Assembly (NCBI RefSeq): GCF_003334305.1
Contig: NZ_QOWS01000026.1
Reading direction: 5' to 3' (one strand)
Length of the DNA: 64,000 nt
Source: Escherichia coli
GTDB lineage: Bacteria; Pseudomonadota; Gammaproteobacteria; Enterobacterales; Enterobacteriaceae
Shown one piece after another: positions 24,129-27,410 of this stretch. Numbering within the stretch: the first letter of the stretch is position 1; every line of letters begins with the position of its first letter. Under the pieces are notes generated by a model that ran no database searches, was not told where the DNA came from, and worked only from the letters and a program-made list of their open reading frames with translations. Position numbers and translations under genes: made by a program.

Positions 24129-24617
24129 AATAATAAGAGTGTTGCAGTTGTTTCATTTATTACTCAAAAATGGTTTAGTTATCGCCCAGGATGAGTTATG
24201 GATGCTATGAATATATTATATTCAGGGATGTTTATTTTTTGATTGGATCTTTATTTGCATAATCTGAATGGTGTACCCGAAAAATGTCAGCATCCTAACA
24301 GCACCCGGATTTAAGGTGAAATTAATCATCCATCACAGACCGGTCAGTACTGCCACCAACCGGTCTTTACTTGTTCATCGTTATAATTTTGTTGGTAACA
24401 GTTCGGGAAACAAGGAATTCCTTCCGGAACCCCCCGGTATCATCCGATAGCATTGACGTCAATCATCAGCGCGACGATGAGTTTTTTTAATCGCATCATA
24501 GGGTGGCGACGTTCAGCACGATTACGGGTCATAGCAAAACTCCTGGGCAGGCGACCACTATGCCGCTTTCACAGGAGTTCTGAATGCTAGTGCTTTCTGT
24601 ATGGCATAACCATGCCT

Positions 24618-24908
24618 CTAACGGTTAAGTGCTTGCAGCACATGTTGCGGATCATTGGCAATCGCTCGCAGCAAAGCCTTTGCAGGCCCGGTCGGTGAAC
24701 GTCGCCCCTGCTCCCAGTTACGCAACGTGTCTACGCTTACAGAAATAAGATCGGCAAATTTAGATTGTGACAACCCTGAAGCGCGGCGTATTTCTTTGAT
24801 TTTCATAGCATCAACTTCAAAAGTCCGCGAAGGCTGTCGCGTTCCTTCAATAATTTCATTCATCTGGGCCATGCTGTGAGTCAACCGCTCAAAAAGTGCC
24901 TTATCCAT
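24618..24908 (-). CDS. XRE-family HTH antitoxin-like protein (HigA-type)
   Basis: 96 aa; HTH with hallmark LRNWEQGRRSPTGPAKALLR segment typical of HigA-2-type antidotes; start codon directly abuts stop of upstream toxin gene. Confidence 0.8.
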   Translation of the reverse strand: MDKALFERLTHSMAQMNEIIEGTRQPSRTFEVDAMKIKEIRRASGLSQSKFADLISVSVDTLRNWEQGRRSPTGPAKALLRAIANDPQHVLQALNR

Positions 24909-25220
24909 TTACCACCTCGTATTTAACAACCGGAGCATTGCTTTTTCCTGGGGAGACAGATCATCTTTAATACCCTTACGATAAATAAGCAGTAATCTGA
25001 TCTCATAATGTTTAACCTGATGAAAGTAAATAACCCTGACACCAGCACGTTTCCCCTTTCCTCCTGAAACCCATCGAACCTTTCTTAACCCACCAGTTTC
25101 AGGTATTACCTCACCATAGTCAGGATTCAAGGCCAGGAAAAACTGAAAACGACTGAATTCATCGTCGGTCAGCAGTTTTTGAACATCTTCAGTAAAAATT
25201 TCCGTTTCGATGAAGAGCAT
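24909..25220 (-). CDS. RelE/ParE-superfamily toxin-like protein (HigB-type)
   Basis: 103 aa; conserved GGLRKVRW..GKGKRAGVRVIYF core typical of HigB-2/Gp49-like toxins; located upstream of its HTH partner (toxin-first order). Confidence 0.75.
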   Translation of the reverse strand: MLFIETEIFTEDVQKLLTDDEFSRFQFFLALNPDYGEVIPETGGLRKVRWVSGGKGKRAGVRVIYFHQVKHYEIRLLLIYRKGIKDDLSPQEKAMLRLLNTRW

Positions 25221-25342
25221 AATTATACGCCATTGGCTTAGAGTAACAATCCTTTTTGTACGTCATTGACGTACCCTTGAAACCACTAGCTTACTGATAG
25301 TGCTCCAGCAAAACCACGTCTCTGCCGGGTTTGTCTTTAGAT

Positions 25343-25361
25343 TTGCGAGGCGCTTTCCAGA
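25343..25361 (-). promoter_or_regulatory. Recurrent 19-bp motif copy C, about 125 bp upstream of the HigB-like gene
   Basis: Plus strand TTGCGAGGCGCTTTCCAGA; lies between the divergent toxin and esterase genes. Confidence 0.35.
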
Positions 25362-25373
25362 TTTTTCACGCCC

Positions 25374-26357
25374 GTGAATTTCCCTGTATCCATCCAGCAA
25401 AAACGGGTGTATAAGACTGTACATTCATACAGCAAAATAAGTTCTACTATGGCACTGGAAAAAGGAATTGCAGAGTTAGTCGAAAAGTTTATCGCTGCGG
25501 GTCGCCCCTCATCGCGTCAACAAAGTATTGCGCAGCGCAGGGAGGGCTATATCGCCAGCGCTGTCCTTGCGGGTGAGACAGAAACGCGGGTAGATATTCA
25601 GACTATCGAACTTGAAGGGATGACCTTACGAATAGTGTCGCCGCTGAATGCCCCGACATTACTCCCGACGATAATTTATTACTACGGTGGCTGTTTTGTT
25701 AGCGGCGGGTTCGCAACTCACGACAACCAGCTGCGCCAGTTAGCCTATTACGGGCAATGTCGGGTTATTGCCGTCCAGTATCGGCTGGCACCGGAACATA
25801 CTTTCCCCGCCGCCCATGATGATGCGCAACGAGGTGCAGAAATAGTCTGGCAACACGCCGAACGACTCGGCGTTGATAAACAACGTATAACTCTTGCCGG
25901 TGACAGTGCGGGCGGACATCTGGCGCTGGTAACTGCTTTGCGATTAAAGCGTGCTGGCGAGTGGCAACCGGCACAACTCATCTTAATTTATCCTATGCTT
26001 GATGCGACTGCGCATTTCGAAAGCTACATACGCAATGGTCACGATTACATCATCACACGCGACACTTTACTGAGCGGCTTTGAGATGTATCTGCCAGGCA
26101 TTGAACGCAGGCATCCTGAAGCCAGCCCTCTTTGGCGCGATGATTTCAATGGCTTGCCACCTGTACATATCATTACCGCTGAATACGACCCACTTTGCGA
26201 TGAAGGTGAAGCGTTGTATCACCGCATGACAGGGCAAGGAGTGCAATGCACCTGCCAACGCTACCTTGGCGTTATCCACGGATTTTTTCAGTTAGGTGGT
26301 ATCAGCGAGGCCGCGCGATCGGCACTACGGGATGTTGCCTGGAGAGCGGGAAGGTAA
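25374..26357 (+). CDS. Alpha/beta-hydrolase esterase/lipase (Aes / hormone-sensitive-lipase family)
   Basis: YGGCFVSGG oxyanion-hole region, GDSAGG nucleophile elbow, downstream Asp and His (DPLCDEGE, GVIHGF); ORF track start is GTG at 25374, alternative ATG at 25449 (MALEKG..., 302 aa). Confidence 0.8.
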   Translation: MNFPVSIQQKRVYKTVHSYSKISSTMALEKGIAELVEKFIAAGRPSSRQQSIAQRREGYIASAVLAGETETRVDIQTIELEGMTLRIVSPLNAPTLLPTIIYYYGGCFVSGGFATHDNQLRQLAYYGQCRVIAVQYRLAPEHTFPAAHDDAQRGAEIVWQHAERLGVDKQRITLAGDSAGGHLALVTALRLKRAGEWQPAQLILIYPMLDATAHFESYIRNGHDYIITRDTLLSGFEMYLPGIERRHPEASPLWRDDFNGLPPVHIITAEYDPLCDEGEALYHRMTGQGVQCTCQRYLGVIHGFFQLGGISEAARSALRDVAWRAGR

Positions 26358-26375
26358 CTTCGGACCTGGGCCCTG

Positions 26376-26408
26376 AAAAGGTTTTCAGATTGAAAACCTT
26401 TTCAGTCA
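26376..26408. terminator. Perfect 14-bp inverted repeat between convergent esterase and yiiD
   Basis: CTGAAAAGGTTTTC agatt GAAAACCTTTTCAG; no T-run, so terminator function uncertain. Confidence 0.4.
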
Positions 26409-26420
26409 AGTAAAACGCCC

Positions 26421-27410
26421 CTACTCTTCTTCGTTCCCGCCCTCTTCATACGGGCCAAATGGCTTCGCGGGCAGAACGATATACGTGCCTTCAAACACTG
26501 CACCCGGCGTCTCGTCGCCAAAGATTTCAACTTGCATCTGCACCCGTGCTTTTCGTCCGCGCGCCAGACGGTCGAGATCGCCGCTTAAGGCACCAAGGTC
26601 GGCTATCGCATGAGGTTTACCGCTAATCGGCTTGCTGTAGCGGATATGCGCATCCGCCAGAATAATCGTTCCGCCGAGATGGCGTTCGCGCAGCATCAGC
26701 CAGATAAGCCCCCAACCGGTGAGCGTCGCCAGCGAGAATAAACTCCCGGCAAACAGCGTATGGTGCGGATTCTGATTGCCGGTTTCCGGCATGGTGGTGA
26801 TAAATTTTTGCCCGGTATATTGTTGAATGCGCACGCCCATTTTTTCGCTTAATGGAATGTGTTCATACCACGCCTGTTGCAGCTGGGCGCACCAGTCACC
26901 GCGATGCAGAATATCATCCAGAGTGGCAACGGGTTTAATCATCAAAAAATGGCGAATCGGCGTGGTAGTTGGGGTGGTGATCTCCCCCTGATTAATGAAT
27001 CCCAGCTTGGCGAAAAACTCCACCGCGTCTTCACGGGCGCTACAGGTCACGCGCTTAACGCCTTCCTGACGCGCCACCGACTCCAGGGTCATCGCCATCA
27101 GCGTTCCTAACCCTTTGTCCTGCACGTCGGGATGAACGGCCATAAAGCGAATGGACGCTTCATTGTCGGCATTAATATACAATCGGCCTACCGCCACCAG
27201 ATTACCCTGCTCGTCGACGACCATCTGGTGATGCGCCATCGCATCCCACGCGTCGCGTTCCGAACCTTTTGGTTGATGCAGGGGCTTACGCAACATTTCC
27301 CAGCGAAACTGATAGTAACGCTCTAATTCTTCTTCTGTTTGTGGAACCCGAAGGTGATACATAGCGATACTCTCTCTTGTTTCCCGTGACAACCCTGGAA
27401 GCTGGCTCAT
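26421..27410 (-). CDS. yiiD: GNAT acetyltransferase / thioesterase fusion protein YiiD (FabY)
   Basis: 329 aa [40 protein letters not shown]. Confidence 0.88.

Follow-up and report, generated by a model that had tools for sequence, protein, structure and literature searches.

The gene analysed here has its closest described counterpart in Salmonella, where STM14_4846 ('nlhH') has been published as a LexA-dependent SOS gene, with dependence on both LexA and RecA (Merida-Floriano et al. 2021, PMC8072944). In that study, nalidixic acid induced the gene 15-fold, a single LexA box with a heterology index of 7.63 was located 13 bp from its ATG, and its expression resembled that of the 'group I' bistable SOS genes (PMC8072944). 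Salmonella nlhH is divergent from higB-2, and the box is said to serve both genes, both of which rise on SOS induction (PMC8072944). A 'putative acetyl esterase' was also raised along with SOS genes in a Salmonella dam mutant; that it is the same gene is an assumption.

We compared this system with a 64,000-nucleotide stretch of Escherichia coli DNA (hereafter the window), in which an esterase gene is arranged divergently from a toxin-antitoxin operon, as an earlier note on the stretch had correctly described. STM14_4846, STM4032 and the orthologue of the window esterase were equated on the basis of gene order, the name 'nlhH' and matching box distances. Like the window gene, S. Typhimurium STM4032/STM14_4846 has toxin-antitoxin neighbours on its fdhE side, is divergent from a HigB-2/RelE-like toxin gene and carries a LexA box 13–14 nt before its ATG, and the Salmonella orthologues that could be retrieved are 77% identical to the window esterase at the protein level. 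The two differ in that Salmonella has an HGGCF motif and a good Shine-Dalgarno sequence, whereas in E. coli the motif reads YGGCF and the Shine-Dalgarno sequence is weak, and in that S. Typhimurium has sehAB, a further toxin-antitoxin pair, on the downstream side of the esterase, where the window has none. SOS induction has been measured in Salmonella only. Taking the lines of evidence below together, we consider it probable that the gene encodes a 302-residue family IV carboxylesterase starting at ATG 25449, that it would be expressed from a LexA-controlled sigma-70 promoter and that it has long been inherited vertically within the fdhE-fabY interval (Table 1).

Table 1. Features of the esterase locus and its surroundings (positions in the window)
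Feature	Position	Strand	Remark
Toxin-antitoxin operon	24618..25220	-	RelE-like toxin 24909-25220, NadS-family antitoxin 24618-24908; context, outside the esterase unit
Conserved 20-mer TTTGCGAGGCGCTTTCCAGA	25342..25361	+	'Motif copy C' of the earlier note; 107 nt before the esterase ATG
Open, non-coding 5' extension of the reading frame (from GTG 25374)	25374..25448	+	Holds the promoter -10 and the LexA box; GTG in E. coli only
Probable sigma-70 -10 hexamer TATAAG (inferred)	25410..25415	+	TATAA core invariant or nearly so in 21 aligned upstream regions
LexA (SOS) box GACTGTACATTCATACAGCA	25415..25434	+	CTGT-N8-ACAG; abuts the -10; 14 nt before the ATG
Esterase CDS (302 aa + stop)	25449..26357	+	RefSeq WP_001162704.1 'alpha/beta hydrolase'; PGAP annotation of an identical locus; Pfam Abhydrolase_3
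Oxyanion-loop motif Y79-G-G-C-F (codons 79-83)	25683..25697	+	H-G-G-C-F in other genera; Tyr79 = TAC 25683-25685
Nucleophile elbow G-D-S153-A-G-G	25899..25916	+	Aligns with GDSAGG of PestE, Est8 and EH1AB1; invariant in orthologues
Catalytic Asp247 (in E-Y-D-P-L; YDPLCDEG)	26187..26189	+	Alignment to solved homologues; invariant
Catalytic His277 (in I-H-G-F; IHGFF)	26277..26279	+	Alignment to solved homologues; invariant
Perfect 15-bp hairpin in the convergent esterase/fabY gap	26373..26405	.	Probable bidirectional terminator

The longest open reading frame of the gene (25374–26357, + strand, from GTG) encodes 327 amino acids, and an in-frame ATG at 25449 gives a product of 302. Homology supports a real gene, already correctly annotated by RefSeq, whose product is by fold and triad a bacterial hormone-sensitive-lipase (family IV) esterase. 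Pfam Abhydrolase_3 (PF07859) matched residues 100–305 of the 327-residue frame with E = 6.7e-69, and 76 solved family IV esterases were retrieved from the PDB at E <= 1e-20, the best being Est8 (4ypv) and PestE (2yh2) at E ~1e-50; the assignment to the hormone-sensitive-lipase family made in the earlier note therefore holds. Est8, PestE, EH1AB1 (6i8d), EstE1 (2c7b) and EST2 (1evq), with E values of 1e-43 to 1e-50, share the Abhydrolase_3 fold, the GDSAGG, DPL and HGF motifs and a similar length with the window protein, in which these three motifs and the residues Ser153, Asp247 and His277 (the latter compared with PestE and Est8) align with their equivalents. The best solved matches show moderate sequence identity over the printed alignments, and their substrates are not transferable to the window esterase. 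Mutated GDSAGG motifs in homologues at this locus had been named in advance as evidence against an esterase; the motif is invariant in the orthologues examined, bar a rare E. coli G151D allele.

Among the marks of family IV, the fold-3 domain, the GxSxG nucleophile motif and the Asp and His in the C-terminal third are all present. The H-G-G-(G/A) oxyanion-loop motif is not, E. coli having Y-G-G-C with both central glycines kept; with fold and triad present and the HGG motif altered, the protein is therefore a family member that is atypical in its oxyanion loop. Solved family IV esterases carry HGGG(W/F), in contrast to Y-G-G-C-F in the window protein and H-G-G-C-F in its subfamily, throughout which the third glycine is replaced by cysteine (27/27). 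The subfamily is gamma-proteobacterial and is marked by H-G-G-C-F together with G-D-S-A-G-G. The YGGCF and GDSAGG motifs, Asp and His that the earlier note listed as hallmarks can all be read directly, but YGGCF is not a hallmark of the family, which has HGG, the tyrosine being specific to E. coli. Catalysis would proceed through the Ser153-Asp247-His277 triad, presumably in the cytoplasm, with an oxyanion hole formed, by homology, from main-chain NH groups of Ala154 and of Gly81 and Cys82 in the loop that follows residue 79.

Every match of the esterase to the curated NCBIfam esterase families fell below the family's own cut-off, and therefore no substrate could be transferred from them. The best of these models, NF058653 'LipP1 family HSL' (HjEstP1 of Haloarcula japonica, PMC11614938), scored 238.8 bits against a cut-off of 350, and the chloramphenicol hydrolase model NF033149 scored 163.1 against 500; the esterase is a member of neither. 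The label 'Aes-like' in the earlier note likewise stands at the family level only. The acetyl esterase Aes of E. coli (PRK10162; 4krx) has the same family and fold and lies at another locus, but is only distantly paralogous (139.9 bits, below the cut-off of 389; E = 5e-29 to 4krx). Nothing in the analysis suggests LexA control of Aes.

The start codon had previously been called ambiguous. As judged from orthologue N-termini, the start is ATG 25449 and there is little real ambiguity: PGAP chose this codon at an identical locus, every orthologue (75–83% identity) opens with MALEKG, the ATG is the sole start common to 20 other species, and an in-frame stop lies at most 12 codons upstream of it in 13 of 20 orthologues. 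The N-terminal comparison with homologues that the earlier note had proposed thus fixes the start, and both the 302-residue product it had described and the weakness of the preceding ribosome-binding site were confirmed, the latter reading TAAGTT or TGAGTT in E. coli versus AAGGA or AAGGAG in other genera. That the real protein is instead the 327-residue product from GTG 25374 seems scarcely credible to us. Although this is the longest reading frame, and the upstream frame is also open in a few other genera, the GTG (codon -25) occurs in E. coli only and has no Shine-Dalgarno sequence ahead of it, most orthologues have stops in the same stretch, and the extension lacks a counterpart in orthologues or solved structures, alignments with solved homologues beginning at residue 8 of the 302-residue form. 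The extension also overlaps the conserved -10 and LexA box; since the GTG lies upstream of both, it is probably outside the mRNA.

The sequence CTGT-N8-ACAG occurs only once in the window, in the box that precedes the esterase. This box, which had been missed in the earlier note, matches the consensus TACTGTATATATATACAGTA at 15 of 20 positions, as well as do the Salmonella boxes at the same locus. Enterobacterial orthologues carry the exact CTGT-N8-ACAG 14–18 nt before the ATG in 18 of 21 cases, and the other three show one mismatch; across the 21 aligned upstream sequences, the flanking bases vary freely around conserved half-sites. Both the box and the -10 are intact in every E. coli allele seen. 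A consensus scan called no plus-strand promoter, and the -35 element is poor. Two features expected of a LexA regulon member, a box overlapping the promoter and its conservation with the gene across species, were both found. Transcription would start from the sigma-70 promoter with its -10 at 25410–25415, and because this -10 abuts the box, LexA would keep the gene off until DNA damage, through RecA-mediated cleavage of LexA, would turn it on. By analogy with Salmonella, we infer that the E. coli gene is under LexA control.

The genes yebG and sbmC are non-repair members of the gamma-proteobacterial LexA regulon whose role is unknown. The esterase gene resembles genes of this type in having a single LexA box that overlaps the promoter near the ATG, and differs from them in encoding an esterase and in not occurring in K-12. 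We know of no classical list of the E. coli LexA regulon that includes it, as would be expected from its absence from K-12. Searches of a literature library found nothing on the E. coli gene, and the terms STM4032, nlhH and SOS plus esterase led only to the Salmonella work.

The box also accompanies the gene outside the Enterobacterales. It was found upstream of HGGCF-subfamily genes in Aeromonas (5/5), Vibrio (3/4) and Shewanella (1/1), where the gene neighbourhoods are unrelated, and in none of 49 distant HGGGW/HGGGF homologues that served as a control. These observations raise the possibility, which we advance tentatively, that H-G-G-C-F esterases are an old, conserved and unrecognised member of the gamma-proteobacterial SOS regulon, whose box has been kept through Enterobacterales, Aeromonadales, Vibrionales and Alteromonadales despite a complete turnover of neighbouring genes.

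A second conserved element lies further upstream, the 20-mer TTTGCGAGGCGCTTTCCAGA, of which the window holds three copies compared with 0.01 expected by chance. Its position (25342–25361) confirms the 12-bp gap to GTG 25374 reported earlier, and its distance from the esterase ATG is 105–109 nt in 19 of 22 loci. Such a fixed spacing would fit the site of an upstream regulator, and one could argue that CTGT-N8-ACAG does not function as a LexA operator in E. coli and that the gene is constitutive or controlled via the 20-mer. We regard this as improbable. Conservation of the 20-mer is better at loci with a divergent toxin-antitoxin or RHH gene (Mann-Whitney p = 0.0013, without phylogenetic correction), which suggests that the element serves those genes instead. 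The CTGT-N8-ACAG box, however, keeps its half-sites amid freely varying flanks, matches the consensus as closely as the boxes of the Salmonella locus and follows the esterase through four orders while being absent from the 49 distant homologues, all of which favours a LexA operator. Reading the 20-mer as a sigma-54 promoter would be speculative; a search of the literature for yiiE/yiiF with RpoN turned up no more than a weak RpoS SELEX peak, which lies between yiiD and yiiE.

The order fdhE, esterase, fabY, with the esterase and fabY convergent, was found in 21 loci from Citrobacter, Enterobacter, Salmonella, Kluyvera, Pseudocitrobacter, Superficieibacter and others, and gene order thus indicates that the esterase is stably lodged between these two genes across the Enterobacteriaceae. 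This synteny across genera rules out its arrival in E. coli on an inserted accessory island. Of 5426 complete E. coli genomes, 2640 carry the gene, which K-12 lacks, and because the esterase is syntenic across genera, the K-12 state is best read as a loss: the esterase would be an old vertical resident of the interval, from which both it and the toxin-antitoxin pair have disappeared in about half of E. coli strains, among them K-12. No remnants of the esterase or the toxin-antitoxin genes were detected in the 474 bp that replace them in K-12, and in strain C4 this 474-bp segment sits between the esterase and fabY. One hit (H55, strain IH5) was left out; it covers 57% of the gene and lies among truncated fragments of unrelated genes, with the look of an assembly artefact. 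The hairpin in the convergent gap has a minimum free energy of -23.3 kcal/mol (z = -3.85), and none of 200 shuffled sequences was as stable. An Rfam search for non-coding RNA at 22900–26600 gave only REP-like matches beside fdhE.

The toxin-antitoxin pair next to the esterase comprises a 96-residue antitoxin that scored 60.7 bits against the NCBIfam NadS model (cut-off 60) and a toxin whose Citrobacter orthologue gave a weak match to the RelE family PF06296. By position the pair corresponds to sehCD/higB-2. It is not Salmonella SehAB, as SehB is a 142-residue HigA-like protein, unlike the 96-residue NadS-family antitoxin of the window. PADLOC defence-system models matched neither the esterase nor the toxin. 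In Citrobacter youngae, a HigBA-like pair was seen downstream of the esterase.

A reading in which the esterase and the divergent pair form one three-gene module, co-inherited, co-regulated and mechanistically linked, might seem attractive. The genes are nearly always present or absent jointly in E. coli (a 2.1 kb segment in 2599 genomes, the esterase in 2640), a single 228-bp control region is common to them, and nlhH and higB-2 are both SOS-induced in Salmonella, with a box that they reportedly share (PMC8072944). Other genera nevertheless make this reading very improbable. Across 22 orthologous fdhE-fabY loci of other species, the slot beside the esterase holds a RelE/NadS pair in seven, a VapBC-type pair unrelated to it, or its RHH gene, in seven (the VapBC pair in other Salmonella and Citrobacter, for example) and nothing identifiable in six, where the esterase stands alone, as in Enterobacter (including Enterobacter hormaechei), Kluyvera and others; the rest are duplicate records of the same slot states. 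The neighbourhoods in Aeromonas and Vibrio are quite different again, and in the window 194 nt separate the LexA box from the toxin ATG, while the promoter predicted for the toxin-antitoxin pair has the box ~165 nt upstream of it. With RelE/NadS, VapBC or nothing in the slot, there is thus no obligate link between the esterase and RelE/NadS, and the earlier question of whether the two always travel together is answered in the negative, slot content differing between genera. As far as gene order can tell, the esterase and the toxin-antitoxin genes share an address and not a function, the pair being one of several interchangeable occupants of the slot.

The E. coli allele differs from its orthologues in one respect that was likewise overlooked in the earlier note, namely His79Tyr. 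The histidine of the HGG motif is canonical in 77 of 79 diverse homologues and present in all 22 non-E. coli orthologues, and has become tyrosine in E. coli alone. A 41-mer with the TAC codon for Tyr79 was exact in 2637 of the 2640 E. coli carriers of the gene, and its CAC (His79) version had no match in E. coli genomes. Among the 139 alignment columns that do not vary in 18 other orthologues, position 79 (H79Y) is the only one at which the window protein departs. The E. coli allele would be a derived one, with His79Tyr and a weakened Shine-Dalgarno sequence but otherwise fully conserved.

Tyr79, the degraded Shine-Dalgarno sequence and loss from half of the strains suggest that expression or activity of the E. 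coli protein may be low. They could also be taken to mean that the gene is a crippled relic heading for loss, in which His79Tyr disables the loop, the ribosome-binding site has decayed and the reading frame is intact only through recent common ancestry. The near-universal histidine, the departure of E. coli from the AAGGA-like sequences of other genera, the absence of the gene from 2786 of 5426 E. coli genomes and the rare alleles with G81S or G151D all fit such a relic, yet we think it rather unlikely. The reading frame runs its full length in 2637 of the 2640 carriers, 138 of the 139 otherwise invariant positions are kept, and dN/dS between phylogroup-level E. coli alleles is ~0.15, a value calculated from just 14 synonymous and 7 non-synonymous differences; the LexA box and -10 likewise remain intact. 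Moreover, the family builds its oxyanion hole from main-chain NH groups after the histidine, in LipN those of Gly144 and Gly145 (LipN paper), and the corresponding residues are unchanged here. A search for mutagenesis of the HGG histidine found one relevant paper, on LipN, in which the glycines and Trp were altered and not the histidine. We thus favour a derived but functional allele, and the Tyr79 enzyme would probably be catalytically competent. Its fixed His79Tyr amounts to a natural experiment on the conserved HGG histidine in a biotechnologically important enzyme family.

Annotation of the gene is in itself routine, as it belongs to a very large enzyme family. Its setting shows that a toxin-antitoxin pair beside a gene need not say anything about that gene, the fdhE-fabY interval being a hot spot in which at least three toxin-antitoxin families are gained and lost. 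The esterase sits behind an intact SOS box in about half of natural E. coli, and conservation of box and esterase over four gammaproteobacterial orders is at a level normally seen for core SOS functions. If membership of the SOS regulon proved true, the DNA-damage response would include a specific ester-hydrolysing step, for example the detoxification or activation of an ester-bearing genotoxin or the remodelling of an acylated metabolite, and the His79Tyr form peculiar to the E. coli lineage would have an altered activity or specificity. A LexA-governed hydrolase kept for so long would then pose a testable question, namely what chemistry is needed after DNA damage.

The window is a piece of the E. 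coli chromosome with the gene order fdoI, fdhE, yiiF, yiiE, antitoxin, toxin, esterase ORF, fabY, dtd, yihY and yihX. An earlier note, made from the sequence alone, had described here an ORF with an in-frame ATG, read as an Aes-like esterase of ambiguous start lying divergently from a toxin–antitoxin operon. The ORF and its ATG were found as described and the observation was confirmed as a whole; the interpretation was supported in part, in that a family IV esterase stood but the start 'ambiguity' and the toxin–antitoxin 'link' did not. Of 5426 complete E. coli genomes, 2640 carry the esterase CDS, at 97.7–100% identity. Window positions 24411-26420, comprising the toxin–antitoxin pair and the esterase, are missing from K-12, which has 474 unrelated AT-rich bases there instead. 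This segment (L002:4440-4913 in the K-12 locus), on which RefSeq puts a 'hypothetical protein', was found in 3083 of the 5426 genomes, so about 300 genomes carry both it and the esterase; strain C4 has it between esterase and fabY, beside a transposase (L010:5328-5909). The longest fabY ORF in the window encodes 329 aa, as does the K-12 annotation (990 nt), but most other strains are given 313 aa (942 nt) by PGAP, a discrepancy in the start codon. Just downstream of fdhE, sub-threshold matches to two REP-derived sRNA families of Rfam (naRNA4, 38.2 bits; ES036, 35.9 bits) are probably REP elements.

Features of the esterase locus (window positions)
Feature	Position	Strand	Remark
Rfam matches	23207-23289		sub-threshold
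yiiF	23334-23576	minus	
20-mer, first copy	23670-23689	plus	
yiiE	23795-24013	minus	
20-mer, second copy	24109-24128	plus	
NadS-family antitoxin gene	24618-24908	minus	
RelE-like toxin gene	24909-25220	minus	
Predicted toxin–antitoxin promoter, -10	25227-25222		
Predicted toxin–antitoxin promoter, -35	25249-25244		
Palindrome	25258-25274		GTACGTCA-T-TGACGTAC
20-mer, third copy	25342-25361	plus	
Esterase ORF	25374-26357	plus	in-frame ATG at 25449
-10 TATAAG	25410-25415	plus	conserved proximal block
LexA box	25415-25434	plus	GACTGTACATTCATACAGCA; 14 nt before esterase ATG
Hairpin	26373-26405		common to convergent fabY
fabY	26421-27410	minus	
dtd, yihY, yihX	after esterase	minus	

The esterase matched Pfam Abhydrolase_3 at E = 6.7e-69. 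Among solved structures, 76 esterases of family IV (the bacterial hormone-sensitive-lipase family) matched it at E <= 1e-20, the best being Est8 (4ypv) and PestE (2yh2) with E about 1e-50. Its GDSAGG (Ser153), YDPL (Asp247) and IHGF (His277) motifs line up with the catalytic motifs of these solved enzymes. Among the curated NCBIfam families it scored below every cut-off, including those of the LipP1 family (238.8 bits vs 350), chloramphenicol hydrolase (163.1 vs 500) and Aes (139.9 vs 389); therefore no substrate can be transferred to it, and 'Aes-like' holds at the family level only.

Alignment of the regions upstream of the orthologues revealed two conserved blocks amid freely varying DNA, the proximal one consisting of TATAA followed by CTGT-N8-ACAG. 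The latter occurs once in the 64 kb window, and the window box agrees with the LexA consensus TACTGTATATATATACAGTA, in the version used by Merida-Floriano et al., at 15 of 20 positions, a score equalled by the boxes of the Salmonella loci. The exact box core was present in 18 of 21 enterobacterial orthologues, with one mismatch in the remaining three. In more distantly related members of the subfamily, at about 50% identity, an exact box again lies no more than 70 nt from the start (Aeromonas 5/5, Vibrio 3/4, Shewanella 1/1), in unrelated neighbourhoods, for example with yqfB in Aeromonas and artP/hutH in Vibrio. No box was found in the 300 nt upstream of 49 more distant HGGGW/HGGGF homologues (0/49), nor a proximal box in Erwinia, Cedecea and one 'Enterobacter' orthologue, all outside the fdhE-fabY context. 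In Aeromonas caviae (L035:2720-3136) the gene directly upstream of the LexA-boxed esterase, on the same strand, encodes a yqfB-like N4-acetylcytidine amidohydrolase, another small deacylating enzyme whose adjacency may be coincidental.

The literature library searched yielded no paper on the E. coli gene. In S. Typhimurium 14028, STM14_4846 'nlhH' was induced 15.1-fold by nalidixic acid and carries a single LexA box (heterology index 7.63) 13 bp away from its ATG; the divergent higB-2 (STM14_4847), induced 8-fold, is said to share this box (Merida-Floriano et al., PMC8072944). In the Salmonella loci that we retrieved, the box is 14 nt away from the esterase ATG and 196 nt away from that of the toxin, and from the matching gene order, name and box distances we infer that nlhH is the orthologue of the window esterase. 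STMUK_4015, a 'putative acetyl esterase' that rose 2.5-3-fold along with SOS genes in a dam mutant of Salmonella (PMC4213855), is assumed to be the same Salmonella gene.

The esterase start codon is ATG 25449, at which the RefSeq annotation of an identical locus also begins (WP_001162704.1, 'alpha/beta hydrolase', 302 aa). All orthologues (75-83% identity, 302-310 aa; Citrobacter, Enterobacter, Salmonella, Leclercia, Lelliottia, Superficieibacter, Trabulsiella and Pseudocitrobacter) begin with MALEKG. Of 20 loci outside E. coli, 13 have an in-frame stop at most 12 codons upstream of the conserved ATG. Among the loci compared, only E. coli has the GTG at codon -25, and the alignment of solved homologues begins at residue 8 of the 302-aa form. 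Because the conserved -10 and the LexA box lie inside the 75-nt 5' 'extension', this extension is probably upstream of the transcript start. The weak ribosome-binding site noted earlier is real: the AAGGA or AAGGAG found 6-9 nt ahead of the ATG in other genera is replaced by TAAGTT in E. coli, and by TGAGTT in its B2 allele. This A-to-G change of the B2/ST131 allele (AAAATAAGT to AAAATGAGT; EC958, L009:2489-2491, window 25437-25439) adds a further in-frame ATG, four codons ahead of the conserved one, and gives a slightly better GAG Shine-Dalgarno-like element.

The window also holds three copies of a 20-mer, TTTGCGAGG(C/T)G(C/T)TTTCCAGA, against 0.01 expected by chance, each preceding a minus-strand gene (yiiF, yiiE or the toxin gene) by about 95-120 nt. 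Other genera have one copy, at a constant distance of 105-109 nt from the esterase ATG, which is better kept with a divergent toxin–antitoxin or ribbon-helix-helix (RHH) gene than with an empty slot (Mann-Whitney p = 0.0013, uncorrected for phylogeny). The reverse complement of the 20-mer, CTGGAAAGCGCCTCGCA, shows a GG-N10-GC spacing that we take to be like that of sigma-54 -24/-12 promoters, and the columns that vary fall within the spacer; a literature search found no support for this reading.

The order fdhE, esterase, fabY (convergent) was kept in every enterobacterial locus retrieved from other species, and the content of the fdhE-esterase slot varied: a RelE/NadS pair (L003, L007, L014, L017, L019, L025 and L028, plus E. 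coli), a YiiF-like RHH gene (L012, L015, L016, L018, L021, L023 and L096) or nothing identifiable (L005, L020, L022, L024, L026 and L027). Obligate pairing of esterase and toxin–antitoxin module thus dissolves: the esterase is the stable resident, the modules are interchangeable lodgers. Some Citrobacter have a HigBA-like pair downstream, between esterase and fabY; in S. Typhimurium sehAB lies downstream of the esterase, and a lone gene, STM4032, separates sehAB from sehCD (PMC3868539; retracted, and drawn on for gene order only). The fdhE-fabY interval (window 23005-26420; loci L003-L028 and L096) is a hot spot for toxin–antitoxin modules. The positional counterpart of the window pair is sehCD/higB-2 of Salmonella; identity with sehAB (STM14_4845 and STM14_4844; PMC12817084) was ruled out, SehB being a 142-aa HigA-like protein. 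The probable operator of the NadS antitoxin is the perfect palindrome just upstream of the predicted toxin–antitoxin promoter; it is kept as TACGTCAATGACGTA in Citrobacter and Salmonella loci with the same pair. Both YiiF and YiiE resemble VapB-type (RHH/CopG) antitoxins that stand as orphans: in Salmonella enterica (L012), Citrobacter youngae (L016) and L096 the same position is taken by a YiiF homologue (71-75% identity where measured) followed directly by a confirmed PIN-domain (VapC) toxin gene, and E. coli lacks that toxin gene.

The hallmark motif of family IV is H-G-G-G; in LipN its second and third glycines, Gly144 and Gly145, make the oxyanion hole (PMC10099132). Across 79 diverse homologues we counted HGGGW in 37, HGGCF in 27, HGGGF in 11 and other motifs in 4, the histidine being kept in 77; HGGCF marks the gamma-proteobacterial subfamily that also has the LexA box. 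Among the orthologues compared, E. coli alone has YGGCF. The Tyr79 TAC codon with its 41-nt context was exact in 2637 of the 2640 esterase-bearing E. coli genomes, and the CAC version had zero matches among the E. coli genomes. Eighteen other orthologues share 139 invariant alignment columns, and position 79 is the only one of these at which the window protein departs; Tyr79 is therefore not a sign of general decay. dN/dS was about 0.15 among E. coli esterase alleles (14 synonymous, 7 non-synonymous differences), 0.05-0.07 between genera and 0.02 for fabY. Rare E. coli alleles (P0123, P0129) are altered in catalytic motifs: G81S, which falls in the oxyanion loop, was seen on 29 contigs, and G151D, within GDSAGG, on 2.

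In the mechanism that we propose, LexA would cover the -10 and transcript start of a weak sigma-70 promoter, and DNA damage would de-repress the gene through RecA-stimulated LexA cleavage. Translation from 25449 would follow a leader of about 27 nt, giving a putative cytoplasmic Ser153-Asp247-His277 carboxylesterase, whose N-terminus, MALEKGIAELVEKF, shows no evident signal peptide. The 15-bp hairpin (-23.3 kcal/mol, z = -3.85) would terminate transcription. The interest of the locus lies in a conserved LexA-controlled esterase subfamily, with LexA control in E. coli predicted from sequence, that is missing from K-12 and carries a fixed His-to-Tyr change in E. coli.
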